Virus record (IMG/VR): IMGVR_UViG_2721755724_000003
Direction: 5' to 3' (one strand)
Origin: a virus
Taxonomy: Duplodnaviria; Heunggongvirae; Uroviricota; Caudoviricetes
Length of the DNA stretch: 36,875 nucleotides
Position 1 is the stretch's first letter, and every line of letters starts with the position of its first letter. This document shows, piece after piece, positions 8,830 through 34,408 of the stretch. A program made the position numbers and the translations under genes. Below the pieces are notes generated by a model, which did no database searches, was not told the DNA's origin, and saw only the letters and a program-made list of their open reading frames with translations.

Positions 8830-10002
8830 TTACGCGCTGACCTGGCTGGCGAAATTCACCAGGTACTGATCGGTGATGCGCTGACGCAGCATCAGGTTTT
8901 CAAGTGGCGGCACTGGCGTGTAGTCGTAGTCGATGGTGAGTTTTCCGGCTTTCAGCGTGTCTTTGTCGTTCACCGACTCATCCAGCCAGCAATCACCACC
9001 AATGAGATAGCCCTGACTGACCAGGCTGCGCATTTTGGCGCGGATACCTTCGATAATGTCGCGGGCCAGCGACGGGTTAAGCGGTTTATCCACCGCCCAC
9101 ATGTGTGCTTCTGCCATCGTGTCCATCAGCACCTGCGCCGTGCGGGTGTAGTTTTCGAAGGCAAAGAGCGGGTCATCACTCAGGCAGCGGGAACCCCAGA
9201 AGCGGAAACCGTCTTTACGCACAAGCGTGGTGACGTCGTTCTGGTTCAGCAGACCTGCATCGGTTGCCGGGTCCTGCAGATCCCAGAACACATCTGCAGA
9301 AATTCCGGTGACACCGTTCACGCCCACGTTGGACAGGCTTTTGTGCCATCCGGTCTGCTCGTCAATTTTGGCGCGCAGACCAAGCGCACGGGCGGTGGCA
9401 TATGCCGTTGCTTCGGCATTCAGCACCGTGTCCCAGCCAGTAAAGTCAGGCCAGATCAGCATCCCTTCGCGCTGGCTGAAGTTTTCGCGGTAAGTGATCG
9501 CCTCCTGCACTGTCTTGCAGCCATACGCTGACAGGTAAGCAAATCCACGCAGGCTTTGCGCCACGCTCAGCAACTCAGTAGCTACCGCCTTGGTGTCGTG
9601 GCCTGGCACGCCGAGAATGCGCGGTTTAACGCCGAGCTGTGACTGGGCAGATAACAGGGCTTTCATACCTGTTTTTTTACCTTCAGCAGTCACTGCGCCG
9701 ATGATATTGGTCGTGGTTTCGTCTTCCGTTTCACCCTGCGGCACACGCACAACAATGGTCACGGGTTTTGCCTGGTCAGCGATGGCATCCAGCGAACGGG
9801 CCAGAGTACCGGACTCACCCGCTTTACCGCTGGCAGTCAGCACATCAGTGATCAGCACGGGTTTATTAAGAGGAAACATTTTTGCATCGGCATCATCGCC
9901 CGTGCAGACCATACCCACGATGGCGGTGCTCACCGTGGTAATAGATCGGGTGCCTTCGTTGACTTCAACAACGCGCACCCCGTGGTGGTAATCCTGAGCC
10001 AT
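8830..10002 (-). CDS. FI: contractile tail sheath protein (P2 FI-like)
   Basis: 390-aa ORF upstream of FII; P2 FI is about 396 aa. Confidence 0.85.
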
Positions 10003-10078
10003 AGTGGCGAACCTCCTGATTGGATTAGGCTTCGCCCTATGTTGAAGTGATTGTGCCTGACAAACAGCTAAGCGCAGT

Positions 10079-10096
10079 TGTACCGTTATTCACACA
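10079..10096 (-). promoter_or_regulatory. candidate Ogr-dependent late promoter element upstream of FI (TGT-N12-ACA)
   Basis: TGTaccgttattcacACA about 85 nt upstream of the FI start; the same dyad motif recurs upstream of O and V. Confidence 0.45.
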
Positions 10097-10144
10097 AAAT
10101 GACGGTATTTGTCTGCTTTCAGGGATAATCAAAATAAAGCTGAT

Positions 10145-10717
10145 TCAGGGAGATTTATTGCTCTTATTTGCCGGAAATTTTCGATAAATGGTAGAAACGC
10201 CTACATCAAAAATCAGTGCAATACGCTGTCTTGATTCTCCGGCCTCGAGTAAACGTCCAATCTGTGCCCACTGTTCAGTGGTCAACTTAGGACGGCGTCC
10301 ACCTACTCTGCCTTTAGCACGAGCTGCAGCCAGCCCTGCCCGGGTACGTTCAACTATCAGTTCGCGTTCCATTTCAGCCAGGGCACCCATGACATGAAAA
10401 AAGAAACGGCCCATTGGGGTACTGGTATCAATACTGTCAGTCAGGCTTCGGAAATTCACACCACGCTGGCGCAACTCTTCTATCAGCGTAACAAGATGCC
10501 GCATACTGCGCCCCAACCTGTCCAGCTTCCAGACAACCAGCGTGTCTCCTGCCAATAGTGTCCTGAGCAGTTTTTTAAGCCCCGGTCTGTCGGACTTAGT
10601 GCCACTGATTTTGTCCTCAAAAATCCGCTCACATCCCGCGCAGTTCAGCGCATTACGTTGCAAATCGGTGTTCTGGTCATTTGTTGACACGCGTACATAG
10701 CCAATAAGCATGATCAT
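10145..10717 (-). CDS. serine DNA invertase (Hin/Gin/Cin/Pin family)
   Basis: 190 aa; N-terminal GYVRVSTNDQ catalytic-serine motif, VVWKLDRLGRS, and C-terminal HTH; very close to Hin/Gin as I recall them. Confidence 0.9.
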   Translation of the reverse strand: MIMLIGYVRVSTNDQNTDLQRNALNCAGCERIFEDKISGTKSDRPGLKKLLRTLLAGDTLVVWKLDRLGRSMRHLVTLIEELRQRGVNFRSLTDSIDTSTPMGRFFFHVMGALAEMERELIVERTRAGLAAARAKGRVGGRRPKLTTEQWAQIGRLLEAGESRQRIALIFDVGVSTIYRKFPANKSNKSP

Positions 10718-10738
10718 CTCCCTGAATAAAAATAGGGG

Positions 10739-11065
10739 ATGATGCCAGTTAGCCGTAATCGCTGCATTTTCTTAAACGTTGGTTTTGGAGAGCGGTTACT
10801 GGAGGCTGATGGGTACTTTGAATTACCGGGAGGATTGCTGCTGCAATGGGGGCACGGCTCGATTCATGCGTCAAGTGCCATTATACAGTTTAAGAAGTCG
10901 TTTAACGTCACTCCGTTCATTGTACTGCCGCATAAAATCACAACTGATGGTCGGTATGTGACGTCATCTAATTATACCTTAACTAGCTTTAGCCTTTATG
11001 GATGGAATGGAAACGGCACGGTAAACAATATTGACAGCTATACGTATTTTGCACTCGGGATGTAA
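10739..11065 (+). CDS. silent alternative tail-fibre C-terminal cassette
   Basis: ORF begins inside the crossover site; encodes ...VGFGERLLEADGYFELPGG..., parallel to the H C-terminus (...LGLGEAAK...WFRLPGG...). It would be fused to the H constant part after inversion. Confidence 0.55.
   Translation: MMPVSRNRCIFLNVGFGERLLEADGYFELPGGLLLQWGHGSIHASSAIIQFKKSFNVTPFIVLPHKITTDGRYVTSSNYTLTSFSLYGWNGNGTVNNIDSYTYFALGM
10769..10794. repeat. gix/cix-like crossover site, left boundary of invertible segment
   Basis: TTCTTAAACGTTGGTTTTGGAGAG, resembling the Gin gix site; inverted relative to the site at 11867-11892. Confidence 0.6.
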
Positions 11066-11093
11066 GAGAAAGCCGCGTAGAGCGGCTTTTTAT

Positions 11094-11519
11094 TTAGGTT
11101 GAGGAGGGCCAAACAATATCTGGAGCGCTGGATACGTCCACCGCTTCCAGCGCATCAAGATAATCCAGCCATAAATTGTACTGCGTTAATTCATCATCTT
11201 TCAGGCGTCCAAGCACCGATTTGCCAGGCCACTGCTTACTGTTTATGTATTCGTTAACCTGATTAATCAATTGCTGCTTTTCCAATTCGGCTGCGGCAAT
11301 TTGTTCCTCATGAGTTGGTGGTGGAATATCAATCCATGCTGGCATTCCGTCGATGACACCTCTGTATTTTCCTTCTGGTGCTTCCTTCATAAATTCGGCG
11401 GCAACAGTGTCGTCAATTTCGATTCCATCATCGGGCCATTCGCCGGATTCCTGATAAGCGATTTTAAGCTCCACAGGGAAAAACGCATTTTTATCGGCAC
11501 TGAAAATATATTTCTGCAT
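11094..11519 (-). CDS. tail fibre assembly protein (P2 gpG / Tfa-like)
   Basis: 141-aa ORF immediately downstream of H; acidic N-terminal part typical of Tfa chaperones. Confidence 0.8.
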   Translation of the reverse strand: MQKYIFSADKNAFFPVELKIAYQESGEWPDDGIEIDDTVAAEFMKEAPEGKYRGVIDGMPAWIDIPPPTHEEQIAAAELEKQQLINQVNEYINSKQWPGKSVLGRLKDDELTQYNLWLDYLDALEAVDVSSAPDIVWPSST

Positions 11520-11521
11520 TT

Positions 11522-12928
11522 CTACCGTCCTATCGAAATATAACTGAATCTGTATTGCTGTGAGATATTACTGGTTGCCACACGCCACGCTGAATTACTG
11601 ATATGTTCAAAATTTACAGACAAAACCTGCGGGGCAGGATTCGACGGGTCTGACTGAACGGCATCAGACATAACACTGACTGAAACCATTGGCTGATTAG
11701 GGAATGGTATAGGGAAGTGTCCACTGATAAAGCGAGTCGTGTTTCCTGAAAAAGTGCCAAACTGAACAATATATCCACCTGGTAGCCTGAACCATCCCGA
11801 ACCAGAAGCGAATGCTCCCATATCCGGTATCTGACCTGAACCTGTTCCCACATCCCGTTTTGCCGCTTCTCCCAAACCAAGGTATGTGAGAAGACCAGCT
11901 ACATCCTTTCCACTCAAATTGGTAAGCGTATTGTCCAGCGGTTGTTTACCTGCCAGCGCATTAAGCATTGTCGTGGCAAAGTTCGGATCATTCCCCAGTG
12001 CCGCCGCCAGTTCGTTCAGTGTATCCAGTGCAGCAGGTGCAGAACCCACCATTCCTGCAATCGCCGATTTCACAAAAGCCGTAGTGGCAATCTGTGTATT
12101 GTTGACCGACTGCGCCGCCGTGGGGGCTGTTGGCGTTCCGGTGAGTGCCGGACTCGACAACGGTGCTTTTAGTGCCAGCGCATTGTTAATGGTGGTACTG
12201 AAATTCGGATCATTGTTAATGGCTGCGGCTATTTCTTTCAGCGTGTCCAGCGTGGCTGGCGCACCATTAATAAGGGCCGTCAGTGCCGCCTGTACAAACG
12301 CAGTGGTCGCAACCTGAGTGGTATTATTCCCCGCCGCTGGCGTTGGCGCTTTGGGGGTTCCGGTAAATGTCGGGCTGGCTTTTGGCGCGTACTGTGAATG
12401 CGGGTCCGGTGCGGCAAGATGTTTTGCCATCTGATCATCCGCGTACACCTTCAGCTCCAGTGCCTTGTCATCCACATACTTGCGGGTTGCCAGCACTACA
12501 GCAGGGTCGATTTTCAGGGTGATATTGTCCGTGCTGCTGGTAATCAGCACCATGCGCACGGTCTGAGTGCGCCCGCTACCTTCAGCCAGTTGCGGCTTAT
12601 AGCTTTCCGGGCAGTTGCCCACGGCAATCAATGCCCCGGACTCATCAAACAAGCCCACTTCACGTATCCACCAACCGCCCTCGTTTTCAGGGATCACCTG
12701 TTCGGCAATAATCTGGCTGCTGTTCTGCGGGTCGATATAAAGCATATTCAGCGCAGCCCGGCGTTTCTCATTTACCAGTGCCGTCTGCTTTGCGTCCGGC
12801 GTTGGCAATACTCCACCGCCATCGCCCACCGCCATATGGGTAATTTTTAGCGGCACACCGAGCGCGGCGGCGCTGGCAAGTTTCGCCGCGCCAATATCCG
12901 TCAGCAGGGTATAAAATTTTGTGCTCAT
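11522..12928 (-). CDS. H: tail fibre protein (P2 gpH-like) with invertible C-terminal segment
   Basis: 468-aa ORF between I and tfa; internal tandem-repeated NDPNF..TT..NALA.K.PL motif; crossover site at codons about 346-355. Confidence 0.85.
   Translation of the reverse strand: MSTKFYTLLTDIGAAKLASAAALGVPLKITHMAVGDGGGVLPTPDAKQTALVNEKRRAALNMLYIDPQNSSQIIAEQVIPENEGGWWIREVGLFDESGALIAVGNCPESYKPQLAEGSGRTQTVRMVLITSSTDNITLKIDPAVVLATRKYVDDKALELKVYADDQMAKHLAAPDPHSQYAPKASPTFTGTPKAPTPAAGNNTTQVATTAFVQAALTALINGAPATLDTLKEIAAAINNDPNFSTTINNALALKAPLSSPALTGTPTAPTAAQSVNNTQIATTAFVKSAIAGMVGSAPAALDTLNELAAALGNDPNFATTMLNALAGKQPLDNTLTNLSGKDVAGLLTYLGLGEAAKRDVGTGSGQIPDMGAFASGSGWFRLPGGYIVQFGTFSGNTTRFISGHFPIPFPNQPMVSVSVMSDAVQSDPSNPAPQVLSVNFEHISNSAWRVATSNISQQYRFSYISIGR
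11867..11892. repeat. gix/cix-like crossover site inside tail-fibre gene H, right boundary
   Basis: Minus strand reads TTCTCACATACCTTGGTTTGGGAGAA, encoding LTYLGLGEA in H; shares the TTGGTTT..GGAGA core with the 10769 site. Confidence 0.6.
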
Positions 12929-13530
12929 GGATTCACTCTCATTGTGTCAATAACATGGACCGCCCCGCCTTCATGCGCGGTGCCACCGGAAATAATCGTT
13001 TCGTTGATATACGGATAGATCGTGATTTCTTCGCCATGATAGCTGGCGGCTCCCACCCAATGCGGGCCGCTGGTCTGCAGATTGATGGACATGCCGATCA
13101 TGTGGCGGCTACATGGTTTGGCATCGCTTATCAGTCGCTCAAGTTCCAGATAGGTATCTTCAGTGATGCCCTGGTCCTGCACGCCGATATCCAGGCGAAA
13201 CGTGCCCGGTGTTTCTCCGGTCTGCCACCACTCAATAATGCGGATCAGGAATCCGAACGGCTTCACCACCCGCCGCACGGCACTGGTGGTCCCTTTATGC
13301 TGATGAATATAAAAAGCATCCTTCACCACCTGGCGCTTGACGCTTTCTGTCCAGCCCTCGTCCCAGCGATCCACAGAGAACGCCCAGGCGAGATAAGGCA
13401 GGAAACTGACCGGACAGGTTGCCGGATTCCACAAGTCACGAAGCGGCACCTGCAGATCAGAAATCCCGCTGCAGGTTTGCGCCAGTCGGCGCTCCAGTGA
13501 AGTTGAACCCGGTGGCAGCAGACTATTCAT
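12925..13530 (-). CDS. I: baseplate assembly protein I (P2 gpI-like)
   Basis: 201-aa ORF between J and H; P2 synteny. Confidence 0.8.
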   Translation of the reverse strand: MNSLLPPGSTSLERRLAQTCSGISDLQVPLRDLWNPATCPVSFLPYLAWAFSVDRWDEGWTESVKRQVVKDAFYIHQHKGTTSAVRRVVKPFGFLIRIIEWWQTGETPGTFRLDIGVQDQGITEDTYLELERLISDAKPCSRHMIGMSINLQTSGPHWVGAASYHGEEITIYPYINETIISGGTAHEGGAVHVIDTMRVNP

Positions 13531-14777: not shown

Positions 14778-15352
14778 ACCGGGCCTCCGGTTGTATCGCC
14801 GCCTTTCAGGACGCCAGTATGCTGATGCGCATCAACCACGATCCCGTTAGAACTCATCGCTCCGCCGCCCTGGGTAACGCCACCATTGATCACCACTTCG
14901 CTGTTAATGCGCGTGCGGTCAGCCTCCAGTACAAACTCACTGGTTTTCAGGGTGATGTTGTCAGCGGCCTCAATGACCATTGATTTGATGCCCCTGACAT
15001 ACCAGCGCCCGGTGGCGGGTTCGTATTCAAACCAGCCACCGTCAGGATGTTCTGTCACGCAGGCGTCCGCCGACGTCGACGGTGGTGCGAACTGATTCGA
15101 ATAGACAGCGGGCAGCGCAAAGGCGGTCTCCAGATTGCCGCCCAGACTCAGCAGCACCACCTGCTCACCTTCCGATGGTTTCCACCATGTGCGGGCATTA
15201 CCCGCGCGCAGCGTCAGCCAGTTAATCCAGTTGGTTTCAAGGTCGCCCGTTTTCACCCGACAAAGCCAGTTTTCCCGGTCCACTTCGGTGACTACCCCAG
15301 TGCGGATCAGGTTGGTGATAAGGCGCATGATTTCGGTTAATTGTGCGTTCAT
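14774..15352 (-). CDS. V: baseplate spike protein V (P2 gpV-like)
   Basis: 192-aa ORF whose N-terminus resembles P2 gpV; overlaps the W start. Confidence 0.8.
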   Translation of the reverse strand: MNAQLTEIMRLITNLIRTGVVTEVDRENWLCRVKTGDLETNWINWLTLRAGNARTWWKPSEGEQVVLLSLGGNLETAFALPAVYSNQFAPPSTSADACVTEHPDGGWFEYEPATGRWYVRGIKSMVIEAADNITLKTSEFVLEADRTRINSEVVINGGVTQGGGAMSSNGIVVDAHQHTGVLKGGDTTGGPV

Positions 15353-15398
15353 AGGGAAAGGTTGCCATCAGGGGAAGAAAGGCGGCAGTGCTGCAACT

Positions 15399-15416
15399 TG
15401 TATCAGTGCTGATACA
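15399..15416 (-). promoter_or_regulatory. candidate late promoter dyad upstream of V (TGT-N12-ACA)
   Basis: Near-palindromic TGTATCAGTGCTGATACA in the S-V intergenic gap. Confidence 0.4.
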
Positions 15417-15420
15417 AAGA

Positions 15421-15867
15421 TCACCCCGCCAGCCATTGCAGAATCATGTCGCGGGTCATTGCCTCAACATCATCATTTACGCCCAGAAGACGACGCTCTG
15501 CGTAACGGACCTCAGGTCCTTTGCGACTAACGCGATCACGCAGGCCGTAATGGTGAACGCGGGCAATACGCTGCACCTTACCTTCAAACTGCACGCTGGC
15601 AGAATCCGTGCTGGCGGCGGTTTTCAGGTATTTTTTGGTGCGAAGTTTTGTAAACATCTGCCGTTTGATGCGGCCTTTTTTACTGCGTGCTGTTACTCGC
15701 CTCGGTTCATAGCTGCTGCCATCAGGATTGCGTTGCATCCTGATGTTCTGCTGCTGTGTCCGGCGCAGTTCCTGCGCCAGCTGGCGCATCATGCGGCTTC
15801 TGGCGGCTGGCTCCAGATTCGCCAGCAAAGCACTCAGCCAGTCGTCCACCTTCTGCAGTTCAGCCAC
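15421..15867 (-). CDS. S: tail completion protein S (P2 gpS-like)
   Basis: 148-aa ORF following R; P2 synteny. Confidence 0.8.
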   Translation of the reverse strand: MAELQKVDDWLSALLANLEPAARSRMMRQLAQELRRTQQQNIRMQRNPDGSSYEPRRVTARSKKGRIKRQMFTKLRTKKYLKTAASTDSASVQFEGKVQRIARVHHYGLRDRVSRKGPEVRYAERRLLGVNDDVEAMTRDMILQWLAG

Positions 15868-16312
15868 GTTTCACCGTCCACATTTCTTCAGGTTCATCGG
15901 GTTCTGCTACAGCTTCAACGCTCGACACACTGCCGTCAGTGCTGACCAGCACACGCTCCGTCAGTTGCAGGTTAAGGCTGATATCACAGACATCGTTGCG
16001 CAGAATATCCACCTCAAAGGTGAATATTTTTTCCCGTAACGCCGGATTATTGATGGCATCGGGCTGGTTATCCCGCAGCCACAGCAAAACCGGGGCCATC
16101 AGCAGATTCTGGTCCCCGCTGAAATCCTCAATCACCGCGTTCAGGGTGTAACGGTACTCCCATGACATGGAGCCGGCCCCCGTGGCAACCAGCGAACCGT
16201 TATCCACAAACAGATGCAGTTTGTCCGGGTTATTGCGGACATAAGGCACCGCTTTATTGAGGGCGTGGCGCAGGGATTGTGGTTTGTTCACTGTTTCGCT
16301 CCTGACACGCAA
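15860..16312 (-). CDS. R: tail completion protein R (P2 gpR-like)
   Basis: 150-aa ORF following the lysis cassette. Confidence 0.8.
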   Translation of the reverse strand: MRVRSETVNKPQSLRHALNKAVPYVRNNPDKLHLFVDNGSLVATGAGSMSWEYRYTLNAVIEDFSGDQNLLMAPVLLWLRDNQPDAINNPALREKIFTFEVDILRNDVCDISLNLQLTERVLVSTDGSVSSVEAVAEPDEPEEMWTVKRG

Positions 16313-16544
16313 TAATCATGTCCACTTTGTCTGCACAGACCGCCCAGGCGGCCTCCGTTTCATCCAGCAACGCGTTCAGATCACCGTTAGTGCGCGGCGC
16401 TGCCTGATCCAGCCGACACGGCGTCACTCGCGGACAACCACTGACGGTAAGCTGCACCTCCGGTGAGCGTCGGACGTTCCCGCAGCCGGATAATGTCAGC
16501 AGGCAAAGGAGTATCAGCCCAGCGGCGTAAATCCTCGTTCTCAC
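16254..16544 (-). CDS. lysC: outer-membrane spanin lipoprotein (LysC / Rz1-like)
   Basis: 96 aa with signal peptide and lipobox LTLSGC, Pro-rich; starts in an alternative frame inside lysB and runs past its end into R. Confidence 0.7.
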   Translation of the reverse strand: MRTRIYAAGLILLCLLTLSGCGNVRRSPEVQLTVSGCPRVTPCRLDQAAPRTNGDLNALLDETEAAWAVCADKVDMIIACQERNSEQTTIPAPRPQ

Positions 16545-16815
16545 GTTTCAGTTCCTCTATCCGGTGTTGTCGTTGTCTCAGCAGCGCGCTGGTCTGTTCT
16601 GCTTCGGCATAGAGCCGCGCCTGCTCCCGGTTATTGGTTTCAGTCAGAATGGACAGGCTGATAAGCTGGCTGTTGCTCTTTGCCAGTGCCTGGCTTTTGC
16701 TCTGCAGCTCGTCTGCCTGCGTGCTGATGGTCTGGCTGGCATCAGCCAGCCGCCACGTCTGCCAGCCCAGCGCCGCCAGTAATAACGCCAGCATAACCAG
16801 CAGCAACCGGTTCAT
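16387..16815 (-). CDS. lysB: inner-membrane spanin (LysB / Rz-like)
   Basis: 142 aa with N-terminal transmembrane segment and coiled-coil-like, charge-rich body; position after lysA. Confidence 0.75.
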   Translation of the reverse strand: MNRLLLVMLALLLAALGWQTWRLADASQTISTQADELQSKSQALAKSNSQLISLSILTETNNREQARLYAEAEQTSALLRQRQHRIEELKRENEDLRRWADTPLPADIIRLRERPTLTGGAAYRQWLSASDAVSAGSGSAAH

Positions 16816-17189
16816 GCTGCTACCTGTTGCGCCATCTGATTACGGGTGATCCAGAAGGCAATAACGGTCAGTAGATAAAAGACCAGGGTAATAGCCCACC
16901 CCGTCCAGGCGAGACTTACGACAATCAGCAATCGCATCACCCAGCTGATAAATACGTTTTCTTTTCGGGTAATGGTCTTCAGCAAAGATGCCCTCAACTC
17001 CTGCCAGAGCGGGCCATTCTTAATTAACGCAGCCAGTGCTACCGGAATTACCGCCCATGTCAGTAAACAGGCTACCCAAACGCCGGACGCTGCCAGTACC
17101 GGAAAAATCCCCTGGGGATACACCATTGCTGTGATTAACAGCGCCATCCATACCATCAGAAACAGCCCGCTGATTAATTTCTTTTTCAC
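16812..17189 (-). CDS. lysA: lysis regulatory membrane protein (P2 LysA-like)
   Basis: Multi-TM ORF. Start placed at GTG 17189, immediately after the K stop; the longest ORF (to 17261) would overlap K by about 70 nt. Confidence 0.55.
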   Translation of the reverse strand: MKKKLISGLFLMVWMALLITAMVYPQGIFPVLAASGVWVACLLTWAVIPVALAALIKNGPLWQELRASLLKTITRKENVFISWVMRLLIVVSLAWTGWAITLVFYLLTVIAFWITRNQMAQQVAA

Positions 17190-17190
17190 T

Positions 17191-17703
17191 TCAGTTTGCT
17201 CCCTGTAAACACCAGGCCATCTCCCGCGCACGGCGGTTATCCAGCCCCTGATTAAACACACCTTTCACATAAACCCAGCGCGGCAACTGTCGGCACGCAT
17301 CCGCCCAGCGCCGCTGATTGAGTAATTTCACCAGCGTGGAACTGCAGGCATTGCCCGTTCCCACGTTGAAGGCAAACGACACCGCAGCGTCATATACCTT
17401 CTGCGGCGGCTGTTGTTTCACACACCTTTCCAGCGCCCGCTCCACACGCAGCACGTTGGAAATCAGTCCTTCTGCTGCCTGTCGTTCCGTAATGGTTTTG
17501 CCGGGAATGACGCCTGACGTGTTACCAATGCCGTCGGTCCAGACGCCCGCGCTGCACTGATACGGCTGCAGACGACAGCCTTCGTAATCGGCAATCAGTT
17601 TCAGCCCCTCCACGGAGGTGTGAAGCTGCTGAAACCCCGGCAGCGTGGCAGCAATAGCCAGCACGGCCCCGACAAGGCAGCGTTTAACGATTGATGGATT
17701 CAT
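17191..17703 (-). CDS. K: SAR-type endolysin (T4-lysozyme fold, P1 Lyz-like)
   Basis: 170 aa; weakly hydrophobic Gly/Ala-rich N-terminal segment (LVGAVLAIAATLPG) followed by EGCRLQPYQCSAGVWTDGIGNT, which closely matches the P1 Lyz catalytic region as I recall it. Confidence 0.8.
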   Translation of the reverse strand: MNPSIVKRCLVGAVLAIAATLPGFQQLHTSVEGLKLIADYEGCRLQPYQCSAGVWTDGIGNTSGVIPGKTITERQAAEGLISNVLRVERALERCVKQQPPQKVYDAAVSFAFNVGTGNACSSTLVKLLNQRRWADACRQLPRWVYVKGVFNQGLDNRRAREMAWCLQGAN

Positions 17704-17899
17704 AGTCCTCCCGCGAGATCTGCCCGTCGCGCAGAAGCTGGTAGGCTTTGTGTTTGTAGTACCAGTTGATAGCCAGCATCAGCACACCAATCATCAGGCC
17801 GCCCAGCGTTGAGGCATCCTTGATGGACAAATCGCCCAGCCAGGCCAGCACAACGGCGATGCAGTACGTGATAAAGGCGCTGATTCGCTCAAGCGTCAT
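17684..17899 (-). CDS. Y: holin (small two-TMD, pinholin-like)
   Basis: 71 aa with two hydrophobic segments and a charged C-terminus, directly upstream of the endolysin. Confidence 0.7.
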   Translation of the reverse strand: MTLERISAFITYCIAVVLAWLGDLSIKDASTLGGLMIGVLMLAINWYYKHKAYQLLRDGQISREDYESINR

Positions 17900-17902
17900 A
17901 AT

Positions 17903-18106
17903 TCAGTCCCATAGCTGGACGGTCTGCACGGTGGTGGTGGTCGGAATGTCCGGCAGCTCCACCTGCAGCCCGTGAGGTAAAAAGGGGCCATATTCGGCAA
18001 GCCCCGGATTTGCCTTCAGTACCTGCTCCGTGACACCTTGCGTGCGCCCGTAATGACGCCAGCAAAGCGCGTCCACCGTGTCATACTGATGCGCACGCAC
18101 TTTCAT
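17903..18106 (-). CDS. X: tail protein X (P2 gpX-like)
   Basis: 67-aa ORF between L and the holin, matching P2 gpX in size and position. Confidence 0.75.
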   Translation of the reverse strand: MKVRAHQYDTVDALCWRHYGRTQGVTEQVLKANPGLAEYGPFLPHGLQVELPDIPTTTTVQTVQLWD

Positions 18107-18570
18107 CAGATAAGCTCCACTGTGCAGTGCGGCGCATCCTGCACCCGGCTGATGGCCCAGCGGGCGTCACGCCACAAATCACCGCTGGATTCCGCCAGTT
18201 CCTCGCCTCGCTTCACACCGGATGCCGTGGCGTCATAGTCCTGGTATCGTTCGTTGAGCATGGCGCGTGCCCAGCAGTAAACCGCGTTGAAATAGTGCTG
18301 AATGCGCTCACTTTTGCCGTCCAGCTGTTCCGCCGGAACCTCAGCCAGCGACACATACCCCAGCATCTGCTGACGTCTGCGAAACTCATACAGCTCTGCG
18401 TTGACCTCCGAAATTGCCGACAGCGCAACCTGCTTTAAACGCGGCTGCGTCACCGTGCCGTCAGTGCGCATGACACTGCGAAACTCCGACAGGTCCACAT
18501 CAGGCCAGAACGGCGTATTTCTGATGATTTCCGCCTGTTCCGGTGCCTGTTCTGGCGCAACAAACTTCAT
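18106..18570 (-). CDS. L: head completion / stabilisation protein (P2 gpL-like)
   Basis: Start placed at ATG 18570 (MKFVAPEQ...), which has an AGGAGA ribosome-binding site; the longest ORF begins at GTG 18633. Confidence 0.75.
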   Translation of the reverse strand: MKFVAPEQAPEQAEIIRNTPFWPDVDLSEFRSVMRTDGTVTQPRLKQVALSAISEVNAELYEFRRRQQMLGYVSLAEVPAEQLDGKSERIQHYFNAVYCWARAMLNERYQDYDATASGVKRGEELAESSGDLWRDARWAISRVQDAPHCTVELI

Positions 18571-18665
18571 GCTGCTTTCTCCTGAAATAGAGGGCGGTGG
18601 ACGGGGTTTTGATGTGGCAGTGCCTTTCGCCACCCCGTGCCGCCCGTGCGCGGGGGCACGTTCTG

Positions 18666-24199: not shown

Positions 24200-25261
24200 T
24201 TAATATTCAAAATTATTTTCTTCAATAGAGAACTCAATCCCTCGGGATAACTTATCAATATTCACATCAAATGCGATATCTGTTAATTCACCATCCTCGA
24301 TTTCATACATAACTTCAATTTCAATATCGAAACTAATCTCTTGAACTTCAGTTCGTGTGGTTGTCTCCATTGGAATCATTACTTTATCTTCGCTATCCCA
24401 ATACCCATTATTAAAGTCTGGACCAGAAACAGTAACTTCAAAATCTACAGAAACAGAGAAGGTCGCTAGACAATAATTATTGTCAATCTTAATTATTGAT
24501 GGTTCAAAGTCATCAATATTGACGACTTCAAATGAATCCAATTCAGCGTCTTCCCAAGTTGAAACGTTATATCCATCGGCATCATTGAGTTGGGCAATTA
24601 CGTCCGCTCTTATGTCTTCACGTTTGCTTTCGATAAACTGCATCAATTTATTACTTAATTCGTTTGTATGCGTATTGTATTCACCTAGAAACTTATCAAG
24701 TGAATCAATTTGATGAAGATTGTTTTTACCATCACAATAATTTTTTAAGTCACTATCCTCAGAAATGATATACACATCTTCATCATTAACAAATCGCTCT
24801 ACCGCAGCTAAAGTGATTGCATCAGGAAACTCACTTTTTTTCTTATTTTGCCCAAATGGTGGTTCTTTGCCAAAGTATTTATCTAAAACCTCATTAAGAT
24901 CTATCACTTCTATTGTAGCTAATTTGGCGTGACATCCTTTCAAAAAATCATCAAAAACTTTTTGTGCTGCTTCGTGAATTTCATGTTCGTTAAATTGCTG
25001 AAAAAAACCATGGAGCGGTCCATTATCAATACTATTCAAAAGCCTAGCTTTTCTTTGTACTGTGTTTATAGCCTGCAGAGCATCCTTTATTGATTCCTCT
25101 ATTTTACCTTTTACTTCTCTCTCTACAACTGTAGTTGTAATTAAGACTAAATCACCTTTCGCACATAATTCATGGAAAGCTTTAAATGCTACCCCCTCAA
25201 AATGAAGACCAGCCTTTACGTACGTTTGTGTGTCAATAAATACCTTATTTGTTTTAAGCAT
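24200..25261 (-). CDS. unassigned cargo protein, PIN-like N-terminal domain plus acidic C-terminal domain
   Basis: 353 aa, AT-rich; N-terminus carries PIN-like acidic positions (VFIDTQTY, LITTTVVEREV, YIISEDSDL); the C-terminal 130 aa or so are strongly Asp/Glu-rich. Confidence 0.55.
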   Translation of the reverse strand: MLKTNKVFIDTQTYVKAGLHFEGVAFKAFHELCAKGDLVLITTTVVEREVKGKIEESIKDALQAINTVQRKARLLNSIDNGPLHGFFQQFNEHEIHEAAQKVFDDFLKGCHAKLATIEVIDLNEVLDKYFGKEPPFGQNKKKSEFPDAITLAAVERFVNDEDVYIISEDSDLKNYCDGKNNLHQIDSLDKFLGEYNTHTNELSNKLMQFIESKREDIRADVIAQLNDADGYNVSTWEDAELDSFEVVNIDDFEPSIIKIDNNYCLATFSVSVDFEVTVSGPDFNNGYWDSEDKVMIPMETTTRTEVQEISFDIEIEVMYEIEDGELTDIAFDVNIDKLSRGIEFSIEENNFEY

Positions 25262-25728: not shown

Positions 25729-27306
25729 CTACAATACTTTTCTCTCGATGGTATTTTTAATGGTCAACATATCTTTAGGAATACTTTTTTTCCCCTCTAT
25801 ACGTATGGTAAACACAAAAAGAATAACGGCTGATCTCACAATTTTCATGAGTTGTAAGAGCTGTTTCTCAAACTTTTCTTTCTCAATAAATCTCACCTCA
25901 TCAAAAAATCCATAAGAATTATATAAATCAACTAACATGTCTTTCTCGTGAATAACTAACAGTTTATGTTCTAAATCATTCCTCCATTCTTTAAAAAAAG
26001 CAAGCTCACCATTTTTATCATTCAAATCCATAGCAATACTAAACAAACCCAGCAATCCTTTATTATTTATTTTGTTTATTTTAAGCTTTCTTTTTTCATC
26101 ACTAATCCGCCAGAAGTTATGAAAGTATATATGTCCTCTATCTGGTTTTAAATCAAATAATTGACACAGAGCAACTGCTATTTTATCCAAGATACCAAAG
26201 CAAGCTCTAAATGCAACCCTTAACTTCTCAACATTTTCATACAATATTTCTCCATTATACAATTCAGAATAACATACCTCCGAATCCTCATCAAAAAACT
26301 CACTATCAACCTTATATTCAAAAAACATTTTTCGTGCTAAGGAATACTCAGCTTTAAGTCTATTTAACACCATTTCCATTGGCACTATAAAATCACCAAA
26401 CACACCTTCCTCGGTGGTCGCAATAGTTATATTATCTTTAGATGACGCATAACAATTGCAATATAGCGAATGATCAGACAACATTAGATTATTATCTATA
26501 CAAAACCTCTGGTAGTTTGATAAAGTATCATACTCCTCCTGCGTGAGCCTTTCATCTGTACTTATATCCTCTATGCCATATACACATGATTCACTCAATA
26601 TACTTTCGTTGTACTTTATTTTTCTTTGAAGAGCAACCTTCCATGAAGGAAAACATTTCCCTGACTTTATTGCACACTCATAACCTCGAATAACTTCTTT
26701 AATCATTTTATATGTATATGTTGTAGATAATTCATTAAGCAATTCTAATGCCTCAGATCTGTTTACCCACGCCTGAGGAATTGAGTTATCAATAGATATT
26801 GCTTGTTCATAATAATCCATTGATTCAGATATACGATATTGTTTTTTTAATACATTAGCTAGATTAACTATTAAATCAGGGGGCACCCATCCATCTTCTT
26901 GTGAAAGTTTAAACGCTTTCCAGTAATTATTTTTTACATCATTCAGCTTAATGAAACTATCAATATCTGCATTGTCATTAGGATTAAAATCAAGAACTGC
27001 GCTCATTCCATTTGCCAAGTTATAGTAATATAAAGATTCTTTCATTATAGTCAGAAATTCATTTTTATTGTTTATAAAGATATTTAAGCCTTCCTCCGCT
27101 ATATTTTTTACATTACTAAAATTTCCGATATCAATAAGATTTCCGGCCAAATTAGATAATATAATTATTCTATTTTCTTTGATTGTATTTATCTCATCGA
27201 TACCGTTAAGAATATCCTTTACATTTTTATAGGCAGAATCAAATGAACCTGCATTAATAAGATCATCTACGAACCCCATTTTTGAAACAACATAGTTGAT
27301 ATCCAT
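25729..27306 (-). CDS. unassigned cargo protein, TPR-like N-terminal region plus C-terminal HEPN-motif region
   Basis: 525 aa, AT-rich; TPR-like stretch (YYEQAISIDNSIPQAWVNRSEALELL) and C-terminal EWRNDLEHKLLVIHE matching the HEPN Rx4-6H signature. Confidence 0.55.
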   Translation of the reverse strand: MDINYVVSKMGFVDDLINAGSFDSAYKNVKDILNGIDEINTIKENRIIILSNLAGNLIDIGNFSNVKNIAEEGLNIFINNKNEFLTIMKESLYYYNLANGMSAVLDFNPNDNADIDSFIKLNDVKNNYWKAFKLSQEDGWVPPDLIVNLANVLKKQYRISESMDYYEQAISIDNSIPQAWVNRSEALELLNELSTTYTYKMIKEVIRGYECAIKSGKCFPSWKVALQRKIKYNESILSESCVYGIEDISTDERLTQEEYDTLSNYQRFCIDNNLMLSDHSLYCNCYASSKDNITIATTEEGVFGDFIVPMEMVLNRLKAEYSLARKMFFEYKVDSEFFDEDSEVCYSELYNGEILYENVEKLRVAFRACFGILDKIAVALCQLFDLKPDRGHIYFHNFWRISDEKRKLKINKINNKGLLGLFSIAMDLNDKNGELAFFKEWRNDLEHKLLVIHEKDMLVDLYNSYGFFDEVRFIEKEKFEKQLLQLMKIVRSAVILFVFTIRIEGKKSIPKDMLTIKNTIERKVL

Positions 27307-28179: not shown

Positions 28180-30594
28180 TTAATACAGGTTCCGCCACTT
28201 ATCATCTTCCCGCAAACACTGGTTCCGATAGAAGATACGCAAGCCTGCTCCTGACGGAATACTGCCGCCGCGAAGGAGTAAATCGACCTCTTTCTCGCTA
28301 CCATCAAATCCTCTGGACTTCAGCTCATAGACGAGCTGCAGTCGCTGATGGTCTGTAATTCGCTGTTTGTAGTCTTTACGCCGTTTCGGTTTCACCAGGC
28401 GTAACCTTGCAGCCAGTTCCCGGCGCTCTTTTTTGTTCATACTGTGCAGGTAATCGTGCAACTCCTTGTCATCCATGCTGGTAATGTCCGTTCTGGGGTC
28501 CCCATCAGCTGATTTATCTTTCTCCTGTTGGTTCAAATTTTCAGCAAGGGGACAGTTATTGCCACGAGTCCAAGGGGCGCAAGCGCCCTGGTCGGCTGCC
28601 GCCTCCTGAATGTCAACGGCCTTACGAACCATTTTCCACTTCACGGCATGAGTGCAGATCTTGCCCTCTGCAATAGGTGACCAGATGCCATAAATACGAA
28701 TGCCGTGATCGCCATAGGCGGTCGGCTCTTCGTTGATTTCATAAGCAGTTCTGATGAGGTGATATTTGCGGGGAACCAGTACGCCGCCCTGCTTCATGAT
28801 GTAGGTGGCAAAACAACCAGCATCAGCAGCAGCCAGGATTGCATCAAGGCGCGGGTTATCCAGTACCGGCGCACCTGCTTTTTTGTCCCCCTGTTGCCTT
28901 GCCGCCTGACCAGCCAGCAATCGCAGTTCACGGTAAGCCTGACGCCCCGGAATGCCAAAGAAGCGGAATTGCTGAACACGATGCAGAGACGCCCAGGCAT
29001 TAACGTATTCAGCATTATCACGCAGGGATTTCCCCGTTTCCTTGCTGATCTCGCCAGCCAGACCACGCCCGTCAATGTTCTTACTGATGTATTTCGCGAT
29101 GTAGCTTGTTGGCGTACCTTTGCGCGGGTTAATCAACTCAGACTTAAAGCGCGGTCCAGTGTTATTGCCCAGCTCCTCGCGGTCTTCACGGATGGCAAAC
29201 TTACGCAGTAATGCAGTGATGGCGCGGCGGTCTTTTTTGCGCATAAAACACAACAGGTGCCAGTGAACTGTACCGTCATGATGCGGCTCAGCCACCCGCA
29301 CGCCATACCAGCGCAATCCGGCTTTGTGCATCGCCTTACGAAATGCAGCAAACATGCCGACCAGATAATCACTACTTTGTCTTACCGTCGCATTTGTCCA
29401 GGTTGGGTTGGGCCTGCCGTTATTTAGCGTGGAATGGAAACGTGACGGACAGGTGATGGTGTAGAAAACGGCGCAGTCACCGCGCATTTCCGCGATAAGC
29501 TCCAGACCTTTAACACAGGCCATCATCTCATTGCGGCGATGCGCAGGGTTGCTGCTGCTGGCGTTTACCACATCCTCCATGTCCAGCGTGTCGCCGTCTT
29601 CGTTCACCAGTTCATGAGAACGGAAAAACTCCAGCGACTTACGGCGCTGCTCACGTTTATGCATCACGGCTTCATAGCTGACATAAGGAGATGCTTTTTT
29701 GCTAACCAGGCAGACAGCGCGCAACTGCTCTTCCCGCCATTCGCAACGCATCTTCCATAATTTCCGATACCACCAGTCAGCGCACAACATACGCGCCAGC
29801 GAACCCGGAATGAGTTCATAGGGCACGGGTTTACGGCGGTTTCTTTTCCGGCGGAGTTGCTCAAACGCAGGCGGGATGACATCCAGACGCAGGGTTTCCG
29901 CTGCCACCTTTTCCCATGTATTGCGGATTTCTTCTGGCTTAACGTCATCGGTGACATACAAATCGCCACAAGCTACATCAAGGCACATGCTCATATGCGC
30001 AGCGACAAGGGTAGACAAGCGTTTCACCTGATCCTGACTCATTTCAGGCAGGATCAGCAGGCCGTCCAGCCCTTCATGGCTTGCCATAAAGCGAAAAGAA
30101 GTGGATAGCTGACTGTCGCGTACATGCTCCAGTCGTTCCAGACATGGCTTAATCGTCTCACGCAAATAGCGGGAATAAGCCTTTGGCCTGCCCAGGCTGC
30201 TGAAGTATTCAATACGTTGCATCAGCGGCTTGCTGATATGGGAAGGCTGGGCATTGACGTCCGCCAGAATGACCATGTCCGGGTTAAAACGCTGCTGCTC
30301 ATGCGCCAGCTTTGCCCGACTAATGAGCTTATCCTGCTCCATTTCGCGCTGGACAGGATCACGGGATTCATTAAAGAAATAACGCTCCCAGACCTGATCA
30401 CTCAGCGCCTCACGGCGCAGCTGTTCCTGCTCGTTATCGGCAGCGTACAGAGTGATCAGATTTGAAAGCGCAGAAACCGGCGCAACTTCCGCCGGGTCCA
30501 GATAAGGGTTAATGGCCTTTTTCGGGCTGTTCCATGAGAATGCTGCGGCGACCTCGTTAAAGCCGCTAGAGTTGCTCATATCGTCATGACTCAT
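28180..30594 (-). CDS. A: replication initiation endonuclease (P2 gpA-like rolling-circle initiator)
   Basis: 804-aa ORF with a YIAKYISK-type tyrosine motif; position matches A of P2/186. Confidence 0.85.
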
Positions 30595-31448
30595 ACACGC
30601 ACCTCGTACACAGCAGAACTATCCACGCCACGCGAAGGATCAAATCCCACCCAGCAGCGCGCCCCAGAAACAGCAATGATTTCTGTTGCAGATTTACTCT
30701 CGCCAGCCGACACGCCGATGCTGCGTTTTGCCTTGATGTAGTGGTGAGTAAAATTGCGATACAGCGAACGGATCAGGGATGTGTCACTGTTAGAAACAAT
30801 GACCGGATGTCCTTCTGATGACCGATGTTCAAGAACAGATGCCAGGTGATACTGGTCATCTTCAGTGAAGCCGTCAGTGTGATAGCCGGAAAACGTACCG
30901 TCATACGGCGGATCGCAATACACCACATCCCCCGCCTTCAACATCGCCAGCGTTTCATCAAAGCTGGCGCAGATAAACGTTGCTCGCTGGGCCTTTTCTG
31001 CAAATGCGCGAATTTCTTTTTCAGGGAAATACGGATTTTTATAATTACCGTAGGGAATGTTGAAATGCCCGCTCTTGTTATAGCGACATAAACCACGGTA
31101 ACCGTGACGATTGAGATACAGGAAATATACCGCTTTCATGAAATCAGTAATTTCAGTTGAGTAATTAAACTCCTGCCTTATGTTGTAATAAGCCACCTCC
31201 CTGTTTGCTTCCTCAAATAAAGCTCTGGCGCGAGATATAAACGATTCACAATCAGCGGCAACCTTTTTATAGAGGTTGATTAAATCAGGATTAATATCCG
31301 CAACCAGATAGCTGGGATAATCCGTCTCCATCATCACAGCACAGGAACCCGCGAAAGGTTCAACCAGTCGCGGGCCAGCAGGAAGATGTTTTTTCAGTTC
31401 GGACATTATGGCAGTTTTATTTCCCGCCCATTTCAGGATGGTGCTCAT
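30591..31448 (-). CDS. dam: DNA adenine methyltransferase (Dam-like, N6-adenine)
   Basis: Start placed at ATG 31448 ([11 protein letters not shown]...), overlapping the upstream stop as ATGA; ILKWAGNK and DPPY motifs characteristic of Dam-family methyltransferases. Confidence 0.8.
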
Positions 31449-31672
31449 ACAGCACCTCCGTTGTAATGTTTGCCTTTCAGCTCTGCGATTTCCTGACAGG
31501 TAATGCAAAGCTGCACACCCGGAATGGCACGGCGACGTGCTGGCGGAATTGGCGCTTCACACTCAATGCAAAGCACGCGGGACACGCCCGGTGTTTTGGC
31601 GCGGGCAGCACGGATATGACGCTGGCGTTCTTCTTCAACGCGCTGCTGTACGAGATCCATTGCATCAGCCAT
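31445..31672 (-). CDS. TraR/DksA-family C4 zinc-finger protein
   Basis: 75 aa with CIECEAPIP...CITCQ four-cysteine zinc-finger pattern. Confidence 0.7.
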   Translation of the reverse strand: MADAMDLVQQRVEEERQRHIRAARAKTPGVSRVLCIECEAPIPPARRRAIPGVQLCITCQEIAELKGKHYNGGAV

Positions 31673-33499: not shown

Positions 33500-33624
33500 G
33501 ATGCAACATTCCTCTTTTAGCAATGATTAATCAGGATGAATACTGATCGTTTGTATTATGTGAACACTGCAAACATACGATCACATCATGAAATCGTCAA
33601 GGTAAAAGTTCACTTGGAGTGACC

Positions 33625-34397: not shown

Positions 34398-34408
34398 GGT
34401 TGCTTCAT

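Follow-up and report, generated by a model that had tools for sequence, protein, structure and literature searches.

The window analysed here, that is, the whole stretch of 36,875 nucleotides, carries on its minus strand a lysis cassette of five genes, flanked by the tail gene X on one side and by the tail-completion gene R on the other, in the order X-holin-endolysin-lysA-lysB-lysC-R-S. We read it as the part of the late (O-type) operon that serves lysis in a P2-like (Peduoviridae) prophage of Klebsiella/E. coli. The best overall explanation, which we consider highly probable, is a P2-like lysis module comprising a signal-anchor-release (SAR) lysozyme, a holin of the HP1 family, LysA and the LysB/LysC pair. 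The cassette is common and has already been described in phage KP12; its significance lies mainly in a correct annotation. A small holin and a SAR endolysin stand together in it, a textbook combination within a gene set of the P2 type.

The upstream flank is formed by X (17903..18106, minus strand; 61% identity to P2 X), the stop codon of which lies 4 nt ahead of the holin ATG. On the downstream side, R (15860..16291, minus strand) starts with a GTG at 16291, encodes 143 aa and shares 50% identity with P2 R; a TTG at 16312 was considered as the R start and rejected in favour of this GTG by alignment to P2 R. A scan of positions 15200-18300 for promoters and terminators revealed nothing meaningful within the cassette, which is consistent with its co-transcription in the late operon. 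All the genes and features that the initial annotation of this DNA had quoted were found again, on the minus strand and at the positions given in this text, and the profile and structure matches reported below are too strong to be due to chance.

In P2, the genes Y-K-lysA-lysB-lysC also lie between X and R, and lysC has the same +1 overlapped architecture with a 38-nt overlap with R. X, R, S, lysA, lysB and lysC of the present stretch have P2 orthologues, with 26-61% identity. When the holin was compared with P2 Y and the endolysin with P2 K, no homology was detected (E = 0.001 and 0.014, respectively, over short stretches). The holin Y has 93 aa and three hydrophobic segments, whereas the holin described here has two transmembrane domains (TMDs), and K, a soluble enzyme resembling lambda R, lacks a hydrophobic segment at its N-terminus. 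Since the neighbouring genes are orthologous, Y and K are unmatched and K does not have such a segment, only the holin-endolysin pair has been exchanged relative to P2.

The endolysin gene (17191..17703, minus strand) starts 20 nt inside the 3' end of the holin gene, with a GGAGG Shine-Dalgarno sequence ahead of its ATG. It encodes a 170-aa muramidase of the GH24 (T4-lysozyme) family with a putative N-terminal signal anchor of the SAR type. The protein matches the Phage_lysozyme profile PF00959 (E = 4.6e-40), and alignments place its catalytic motif, E41-G-C43-RLQPYQ-C50-SAGVW-T56, at 17536..17583 (minus strand), where E41, C50 and T56 have exactly the spacing of the GH24 triad, defined as Glu-8X-Asp/Cys-5X-Thr (PMC3556154). 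The best match in the PDB is P1 Lyz (1XJT, E = 2e-26), with 37% identity overall and about 18 of 22 residues shared in the catalytic motif; the R21 structure 3HDE is also matched (E = 1e-17). The fold is assigned from the match to 1XJT at the sequence level, together with the model published for KP12 (PMC9902359). An AlphaFold2 model of the endolysin was useless (mean pLDDT 43, pTM 0.30), being built on a 14-sequence alignment in which all sequences were at least 79% identical to the query.

The resemblance to P1 Lyz (1XJT/1XJU) extends to the cysteines. The endolysin contains KRCLVGAVLAIAATLPG, which includes Cys9, and EGCRLQPYQCSAGVWTDGIGNT, which includes Glu41, Cys43, Cys50 and Thr56; by alignment, Cys9, Cys43 and Cys50 correspond to C13, C44 and C51 of P1 Lyz. 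Both proteins therefore have a Cys in the SAR segment, a Cys at Glu+2 and a Cys in the middle of a Glu-8X-Cys-5X-Thr triad, and both have seven Cys in total, four of which align exactly. They differ in the length of the SAR segment, about 21 residues in P1 Lyz versus 16 here, and in the position of the SAR Cys, 29 versus 32 residues before the Glu. In P1 Lyz, the triad Cys is regulatory and remains disulfide-bonded until the enzyme is activated (PMC3556154). A Cys pair flanking the catalytic Glu, as in Lyz103, was not found in the endolysin, in which Tyr40 precedes E41 and only the downstream Cys43 is present. Lyz103 is said to have been described by Kuty et al. in 2010 as disulfide-caged, with a Cys immediately on either side of the catalytic Glu.

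On the basis of hydropathy and Cys conservation, the putative SAR domain lies within residues 1-24 (17632..17703, minus strand). The n-region, MNPSIVKR, is basic and is followed by CLVGAVLAIAATLPGF, a weakly hydrophobic segment of 16 residues with Cys9 at its cytoplasmic edge. This segment has a mean Kyte-Doolittle value of 2.11, a G/A/S/T fraction of 0.44 and a Hessa sum of +1.35, the latter being -0.86 for the TMD of LysB. This is the Gly/Ala-rich, weakly hydrophobic and Cys-bearing N-terminal segment noticed in the initial annotation. A SAR N-terminus is described as 2-3 basic residues ahead of a TMD that carries no charge, is weakly hydrophobic and abounds in Gly, Ala, Ser or Thr (PMC9239132); read leniently, this description fits the endolysin, where K7 and R8 precede a short segment, and the G/A/S/T fraction is lower than our own estimates for P1 Lyz (0.52) and R21 (0.65). 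The definitive demonstration of a SAR endolysin would be a Sec-dependent, holin-independent lysis on over-expression, with release by a pinholin or by depolarisation (PMC9239132). Lys of phage HP1, a distant relative, was reported to lyse E. coli by itself, and azide, which inhibits SecA, to prevent the release of HP1 phage (PMC7312051). In the present endolysin, an N-terminus of the lipoprotein kind was rejected, as 'VKRC' is no lipobox.

The holin gene (17684..17899, minus strand) encodes a class II protein, and both its ORF and a hydropathy check bear out the 71 aa and two TMDs initially ascribed to it, the TMDs being located at residues 6-22 and about 31-48 and followed by a charged C-terminus. 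The protein scores above the gathering threshold of the HP1 holin profile PF16080 (36.7 bits, cut-off 28.8), a family classified as TCDB 1.E.7; it also matches phrog_20 holin (E = 1.9e-26), and NCBI gives its homologues the name 'HP1 family phage holin'. The holin of HP1/HP2, P2-like phages of Haemophilus (Hpunavirus), belongs to the same Pfam family. As in the present cassette, the holin and endolysin genes of these phages overlap and a LysB-like gene is found downstream, while HP2 Lys, like the endolysin described here, is a GH24 enzyme with a Cys-bearing N-terminal hydrophobic segment and an EGC...C motif. HP1/HP2 nevertheless differ from the present case, since identity is limited to 21% for the holin (with HP2 Hol) and 33% for the endolysin, TMD1 of HP Hol is weakly hydrophobic whereas it is strongly so here, HP1 has no lysA, and the HP cassette follows the tail tube gene, at another place in the genome. 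The reading of the pair as a pinholin and a SAR endolysin has its experimental footing in HP1, HP1 Hol having been reported as a pinholin that kills without release of beta-galactosidase (PMC7312051).

The lambdoid phage 21 likewise has a small holin with two TMDs, S21, alongside a SAR endolysin of the GH24 family, R21. S21 differs, however, from the holin studied here, the gene of which has one start codon only and no dual-start motif for an antiholin. In addition, TMD1 of the present holin is strongly hydrophobic (mean Kyte-Doolittle 2.12, Hessa sum -0.56, compared with 0.52 and +8.55 for TMD1 of S21) and does not, by hydropathy, have the weakly hydrophobic S21-like character that would allow it to leave the bilayer. 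The match to the P21 holin S profile, PF04971, is below threshold (23.2 bits, cut-off 26; E = 7e-5). The term 'pinholin-like' used in the initial annotation is thus fair, as a cautious label, as regards membership of the HP1 holin family and the pinholin reported in HP1, but it does not extend to an S21-like TMD1 or to the S21 profile. The holin may be a pinholin, as its family membership suggests, but its strongly hydrophobic TMD1 makes this a tentative reading.

It is possible, although we put it forward with reserve, that the SAR-type endolysin acts together with a canonical class II holin making large holes, in which case the SAR segment would only free export from the size of the hole, as for P1 Lyz and LydA. 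A TMD1 as hydrophobic as an ordinary TMD, the single start codon, the sub-threshold PF04971 score and a similarity of 21% to the only tested member of the family all point in this direction, as does the poor heptamer model that the KP12 authors obtained for the identical protein (low confidence, pLDDT 50.8; PMC9902359). Moreover, the presence of a SAR endolysin need not mean that the holin is a pinholin, since P1 Lyz acts mainly with the canonical LydA (PMC9025707). In P1, lyz is unlinked to lydA, the gene of this main holin, and has lydD, which encodes a pinholin, behind it (PMC9025707), whereas here the holin gene comes first, in a P2-type cassette. Against a canonical holin stand the above-threshold match to the family of HP1 Hol, with its killing free of beta-galactosidase release (PMC7312051), and the GxxxG of TMD2 (G34, G38), which is invariant among relatives and aligns with the GxxxG of HP2 Hol. 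A further argument comes from the loci of holin relatives, as an endolysin of the SAR type with KRC...EGC...C directly follows the holin in all 30 related species-level loci with readable downstream DNA and a soluble endolysin is the neighbour in none of them. Nevertheless, this survey reached relatives with at least 50% identity, and it is a weak test of pinholin function, because the loci are those of close relatives in which the pair has been inherited together. We regard as rather unlikely a pinholin working otherwise than S21, with two stably hydrophobic helices, a TMD1 that would not flip out, triggering through GxxxG packing of TMD2, and LysA as a separate, optional antiholin.

The Cys of the SAR segment was then considered among distant relatives of the endolysin, the sample being made of representatives of 50%-identity clusters, each less than 80% identical to the query. 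A Cys in the hydrophobic segment is present in 20 of the 22 TM-bearing relatives that have the C43+C50 pair and in none of the four without it (Fisher p = 0.001). This N-terminal Cys is always 30-32 residues before the catalytic Glu (32 here, 29 in P1 Lyz), and it is missing from SAR relatives with an Asp triad. The Cys43+Cys50 pair itself is not specific to SAR proteins, since it is found in 27 of 85 soluble relatives. An N-terminal Cys at a set distance from the catalytic Glu offers a simple marker to separate P1-type covalent from Asp-triad SAR lysozymes. With the 1XJT match, the Cys triad and this fixed spacing, the proposal that the endolysin is a SAR protein of the P1 Lyz type appears well supported.

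R21 reportedly has an Asp triad and a non-covalent regulation, as Sun et al. are said to have described in 2009. That the present endolysin would be controlled in the same manner, refolding after release being sufficient for activation and the Cys being structural or incidental, seems improbable to us. Such a view could appeal to the 27 soluble relatives, in which the Cys pair predates or outlives SAR regulation, and to the position of Cys9, which is separated from the Glu by three residues more than Cys13 is in P1 Lyz. It is opposed by the strict link between the SAR Cys and the Cys pair, with its absence from Asp-triad SAR relatives, and by the triad residue itself, which is a Cys and not an Asp and which in P1 Lyz is disulfide-held until activation (PMC3556154).

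Lysozymes secreted as soluble periplasmic enzymes exist, Lys44 of phage fOg44 being an example. For the present endolysin, an ordinary cleaved Sec signal peptide, with a soluble periplasmic lysozyme restrained by other means, is very improbable. In favour of it, the h-region is short (16 residues), A-I-A at residues 16-18 can be read as a signal-peptidase site and SignalP-type predictors scored the HP1 Lys N-terminus as a signal peptide (PMC7312051). Against it, processing at 18/19 would shorten the h-region to about 7 residues, and distant relatives keep the upstream Cys (20/22, with a spacing of 30-32) but not the AXA. The homology to P1 Lyz, whose crystal structure 1XJT still contains the SAR domain, also reaches into the segment. 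Retention of the SAR domain is further suggested by the conservation of this Cys, which would be unexplained in a cleaved segment.

The lysA gene (16812..17189, minus strand) has a GTG start located 1 nt beyond the endolysin stop, with an AGGGAG Shine-Dalgarno sequence, and encodes a protein of 125 aa with four TMDs. The start at 17189 agrees with the annotation of near-identical records. A longer ORF of 149 aa from 17261 was rejected, as it would overlap the endolysin gene by 71 nt, while the GTG at 17189 fits the Shine-Dalgarno sequence, the homologues and the NF038378 profile, which is matched from its first position (123 bits, cut-off 40). LysA shares 26% identity with P2 LysA over 132 residues (E = 4e-7), both proteins have four TMDs, and the gene occupies the place of a lysA, between the endolysin gene and lysB. 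The P2 record notes that lysA 'affects timing of lysis', and about half of the related cassettes are devoid of LysA; the protein is likely a non-essential modulator of lysis timing. Endolysin::LysA fusion ORFs are recurrent in databases, and the Pfam family PF28015 LysA is recorded on fused homologues. More remotely, rather than being pseudogenes or the result of sequencing errors, such fusions could encode working variants anchored in the membrane.

The start of lysB (16387..16815, minus strand) overlaps the lysA stop by 4 nt. LysB is a 142-aa i-spanin with an N-terminal TMD (residues 4-20, by hydropathy) and a periplasmic coiled coil; it has 31% identity to P2 LysB and matches TIGR03495 (173.8 bits, cut-off 92.75) and phrog_89 Rz-like spanin. 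The lysC gene (16254..16544, minus strand) starts 271 nt after the lysB start and is therefore in the +1 frame. It has 158 nt in common with lysB and a further 133 nt beyond the lysB stop, of which the last 38 nt overlap R from its GTG on, a geometry that agrees with the initial description of lysC as beginning inside lysB out of frame and reaching R. Its product is an o-spanin lipoprotein of 96 aa, with a signal peptide bearing the lipobox L-S-G-C21 and a Gly at +2, 42% identity to P2 LysC and matches to PF23793 LysC and to NF038368 P2_Rz1 (124.5 bits, cut-off 27). LysB and LysC form a two-component spanin of the overlapped architecture, one of the classes defined for these genes (PMC6139136). 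Orthology to P2 and the family profiles (TIGR03495, NF038368, NF038378) together establish the presence of LysA, LysB and LysC that had been noted at the outset.

Put together, these elements suggest the following course of lysis. The GH24 lysozyme would be exported via Sec and tethered, inactive, at the inner membrane by its uncleaved SAR segment; in this state, a disulfide to Cys43 would keep the triad Cys50 blocked, and Cys9 would lie buried on the cytoplasmic side of the membrane, at its edge. Meanwhile, the two-TMD holin of the HP1 family would build up in the membrane, its timing being possibly modulated by LysA, and would trigger at a set time and depolarise the membrane. The SAR segment would then exit the bilayer and Cys9 would attack the Cys43-Cys50 bond, leaving Cys50 free and the enzyme active, as in P1 Lyz. 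After degradation of the murein, the LysB/LysC spanin complex would fuse or disrupt the outer membrane. The scheme builds on direct observations, namely the gene identities and overlaps, the family memberships, the TMD counts, the Cys triad with its conservation among relatives and the near-identity to published cassettes. What we infer is that export through Sec leaves the anchor uncleaved and that the disulfide is swapped, together with how large the holin lesion is and what LysA does. As for the initial suggestion of SAR lysis in place of canonical holin-dependent release, it holds for export; timing of lysis by the holin is still to be expected, and triggering would not be holin-independent. 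If this endolysin is produced as an antibacterial, toxicity during expression and a redox-dependent activity are to be expected.

The same gene order and overlaps are found in the KP12 clone KP12_3 (OM835953, peg.316-320), with protein identities of 100% for the holin, 98% for the endolysin and LysA, and 96% for LysB and LysC. Equivalent cassettes are present in Klebsiella phage 4LV2017, in E. coli p13P477T-2 (CP019275) and in the Escherichia phages 500465-1 and Cartapus, as well as in Fels-2, SopEPhi, RE-2010 and SEN8; DNA identity is 96-98% to the Klebsiella/E. coli phages and about 84% to the Fels-2 group. The module is thus widespread, from Fels-2 and SopEPhi to many Klebsiella and E. coli prophages and phage KP12. 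For the P2-like phage Midge, too, the annotation lists spanins and a SAR endolysin next to a holin of class II (PMC12697156). The KP12 endolysin was purified and assayed by spot test only, Gram-negative lytic activity being called not experimentally verified in the discussion of that paper, which does not discuss the Cys triad. In deposited records, lysC and the lysA start are frequently missed or truncated; in the KP12 annotation, lysC is cut to 57 aa, without its lipobox, and the holin is called a 'secretory protein'.

The lysis genes lie on the minus strand between the tail gene X (17903-18106) and the tail completion gene R (15860-16291), in the order L (18106-18633), X, holin (17684-17899), endolysin (17191-17703), lysA (16812-17189), lysB (16387-16815), lysC (16254-16544), R and S (15421-15867). 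The X stop codon and the holin ATG are 4 nt apart, and the 3' end of the holin gene contains, 20 nt inside, the endolysin ATG, which is preceded by GGAGG. The endolysin stop codon is separated by 1 nt from the lysA GTG, itself preceded by AGGGAG, and the lysA stop and the lysB start overlap by 4 nt. As the initial annotation had proposed, lysC starts inside lysB in another frame and reaches R: its start, in the +1 frame, lies 271 nt after that of lysB, and the gene has 158 nt in common with lysB, extends 133 nt beyond it and overlaps R by 38 nt, the same overlap as in P2. Both peptide strings quoted in that annotation are present in the window, and the sole adjustment to it concerns lysA, for which a 149-aa ORF was rejected; LysA is a 125-aa GTG-initiated protein.

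The endolysin is a GH24 lysozyme (PF00959, E = 4.6e-40). Among solved structures it matches P1 Lyz best (1XJT, E = 2e-26), better than R21 (3HDE, E = 1e-17). The endolysin shares 37% overall identity with P1 Lyz, and in the catalytic motif about 18 of 22 residues are the same. The triad Glu-8X-Cys-5X-Thr consists of E41, C50 and T56, with a further Cys at Glu+2 (C43); the P1 Lyz counterparts are E42, C51, T57 and C44, and in P1 Lyz a disulfide holds the triad Cys until activation (PMC3556154). At the N-terminus, basic K7 and R8 are followed by an uncharged 16-residue stretch, CLVGAVLAIAATLPGF, with Cys9 at its cytoplasmic edge. The hydrophobicity of this stretch is below that of neighbouring bona fide transmembrane domains (TMDs), with a Hessa sum of +1.35 vs -0.86 for the LysB TMD, and its G/A/S/T fraction is 0.44. 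It fits the descriptive criteria for signal-anchor-release (SAR) domains (PMC9239132). The enzyme had initially been described as P1 Lyz-like with a Cys in an N-terminal segment, which is borne out by 1XJT as best relative and by Cys9, C43 and C50.

Because the segment is short and carries A-I-A at residues 16-18, we had to consider that it is a cleaved signal peptide, an alternative already raised in the initial annotation. Our comparison used 111 endolysin relatives of less than 80% identity, obtained by exhaustively searching the representatives of 50%-identity clusters. Where a relative has both an N-terminal hydrophobic segment and the C43+C50 pair, the segment Cys is present in 20 of 22, the other two appearing N-terminally truncated, vs none of the four with a hydrophobic segment but no such pair (Fisher p = 0.001, indicative only since the sequences are related to one another). 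Of these four, three carry an R21-like Asp triad and the fourth has Pro in place of the Asp. In every case the segment Cys lies 30, 31 or 32 residues upstream of the Glu. Such a fixed register would be senseless in a peptide that is cleaved and degraded, and the AXA motif is not conserved among the relatives bearing the segment. The comparison thus favours a SAR domain over a cleaved signal peptide, and the Cys kept at a fixed register supports an N-terminal segment that would be retained and functional, with a P1-type covalent switch.

Since 27 of 85 soluble relatives have C43+C50 as well, this pair alone is not diagnostic; the triple with Cys9 is. HP2 Lys, read from an upstream ATG, has the same triple. 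HP1 Lys expressed alone lyses E. coli, and the SecA inhibitor azide blocks HP1 phage release (PMC7312051). The triad-position Cys is found in 61 of the 85 soluble GH24 lysozymes without N-terminal hydrophobic segment (counted among endolysin relatives P0160-P0267), the 27 adding the Glu+2 Cys; this is consistent with the published idea that soluble enzymes of the clade descend from P1 Lyz-like SAR endolysins (PMC3556154).

ORF and hydropathy analysis agree with the proposed 71-aa holin with two TMDs: the protein has two hydrophobic helices and ends in a highly charged C-terminus, and its gene has only one start codon. It passes the threshold of the Pfam HP1 holin family (36.7 bits, threshold 28.8) and falls narrowly under that of P21 holin S (23.2 bits, threshold 26); its homologues carry the NCBI name 'HP1 family phage holin'. 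HP1 Hol was reported to kill E. coli with neither lysis nor release of beta-galactosidase, and to be needed for lysis in Haemophilus, hence its pinholin label (PMC7312051). Several observations count against a simple transfer of this label: HP2 Hol is only 21% identical to the holin; TMD1 has the hydrophobicity of an ordinary TMD (mean KD 2.12), unlike the weakly hydrophobic TMD1 of S21 (mean KD 0.52); and a poor heptamer model was reported for the identical holin of KP12 (PMC9902359). In its favour, the TMD2 GxxxG (G34, G38) is invariant in holin relatives and aligned with that of HP2 Hol. A KRC...EGC...C lysozyme directly follows the holin in 30 of 30 species-level loci with readable downstream DNA and a soluble endolysin in none, a weak test, since these holins share at least 50% identity and are inherited together with the endolysin. 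For P1 Lyz, the main partner is a canonical holin, LydA (PMC9025707). We put pinholin function at roughly even odds. What stands of the initial 'pinholin-like holin' is membership of the HP1 holin family above threshold; pinholin status is unproven and TMD1 is not SAR-like.

The accessory genes lysA, lysB and lysC are all recovered by family models. LysB has one N-terminal TMD and an equivalog-level match to TIGR03495 (173.8 bits vs 92.75); LysC matches NF038368 'P2_Rz1' (124.5 bits vs 27) and begins with a lipoprotein signal peptide whose lipobox is L-S-G-C21, followed by Gly at +2. They are a two-component spanin of the 'overlapped' architecture, of which P2 is the paradigm (PMC6139136). LysA matches NF038378 and, like its P2 counterpart, contains four TMDs; according to the P2 record, lysA is non-essential and affects lysis timing.

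In the KP12 record (OM835953), lysC is cut to 57 aa (1895-2068 of the locus), losing signal peptide and lipobox, and it is unannotated in CP019275 and in Klebsiella phage ST15-OXA48phi14.1 (MK433578); an intact 96-aa ORF was found in all three. The lysA position is a variable slot: the gene is missing from about half of 30 related cassettes, lysB then directly following the endolysin, and is often only 39-45% identical in related cassettes though flanking genes are 70-90% identical. Endolysin::LysA fusion ORFs of 276-296 aa account for about 40 of the 120 best endolysin database clusters (proteins P0012, P0015, P0024 and others; locus L039, 1501-2391). They arise via at least five different 1-nt deletions near the 3' end of the endolysin gene, within its last ~40 nt (17191-17232 in the window), for example GGG to GG in gcgcGGGag or tGGt to tGt, and the P0012 allele occurs in 48 index blocks (ENA, NCBI, Logan). 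These fusions may be real pseudogene or variant forms of the lysis genes, or may stem from homopolymer errors in sequencing; the window has the two genes as separate ORFs.

By homology, the lysozyme would be exported via Sec, inactive and tethered to the membrane. The holin would then trigger, with LysA possibly modulating timing, and the membrane would depolarise; the SAR segment would exit the bilayer and Cys9 would attack the Cys43-Cys50 disulfide, freeing catalytic Cys50. Murein would be degraded, after which LysB/LysC would disrupt the outer membrane. Export would be holin-independent, with lysis timing still expected to need the holin.

X (61% identity), R (50%), LysC (42%), S (39%), LysB (31%) and LysA (26%) match P2, whereas P2 Y (93 aa, three hydrophobic segments) and P2 K (soluble, without hydrophobic segment) have no real similarity to the holin and endolysin; the P2 frame is thus kept and only that pair differs. 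The cassette is already known. The KP12 proteins are 96-100% identical, and for KP12 peg.316-320 a lysis cassette of the P2 type has been described, in which the spanins are of the overlapped kind and the endolysin conserves the P1 Lyz SAR domain (TM-align 0.83 to 1XJT) (PMC9902359). Fels-2, SopEPhi, RE-2010 and SEN8 carry the same holin-endolysin module at ~84% DNA identity, Erwinia and Yersinia P2-like phages carry more distant copies, and P2-like phage Midge has annotated class II holin, SAR endolysin and spanin genes (PMC12697156). We add little to this: the Cys triple made explicit, with its conserved register, a holin TMD1 that is not SAR-like, and the lysC and lysA annotation corrections. 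The cassette observation as a whole is confirmed and its SAR interpretation supported, the pinholin part excepted.

The window comprises a P2-like (Peduoviridae) prophage and the chromosomal DNA on its left: the host genes ybjM and a ybjL-like permease gene (288-2620) are followed by phage structural genes, with a CI-type repressor and an integrase at the right end. Klebsiella prophages and phages such as KP12 show 96-97% identity across 81% of its first 25 kb, and for the lysis region the identity to Klebsiella phage 4LV2017, KP12 and the 37-kb circular E. coli replicon p13P477T-2 is 97-98%. This replicon (CP019275.1, 37,446 bp), a near-identical P2-like genome from a pig E. coli isolate deposited as a 'plasmid', may represent a phage genome that has been excised or is replicating, or else an artefact of assembly.

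Two minus-strand cargo genes (24200-25261 and 25729-27306) separate portal gene Q from the replication genes, at a defence hotspot of P2-like phages. They encode a 353-aa PIN_12-domain protein (E = 1.5e-25) and a 525-aa protein whose C-terminal domain is an LA2681-like HEPN domain (E = 1.8e-38) and whose TPR match is below threshold. PADLOC gave no significant match for either, which suggests that the two may form a toxin or defence pair not yet catalogued. Between the repressor (33619-34188) and integrase (35823-36875) genes, a plus-strand gene (34400-35740) encodes a 446-aa KAP-family P-loop NTPase matching PADLOC candidate defence system PDC-S20 (E = 1e-171). A Hin/Cin-type serine invertase gene (10145-10717, minus strand; Resolvase and HTH_7) adjoins the tail-fibre genes, suggesting an invertible host-range segment; a search for inverted repeats of at least 18 nt in 10000-13000 found none. 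Finally, a D12-class, Dam-like N6-adenine DNA methyltransferase gene (30591-31508, minus strand; E = 1.4e-77) adjoins a replication gene.
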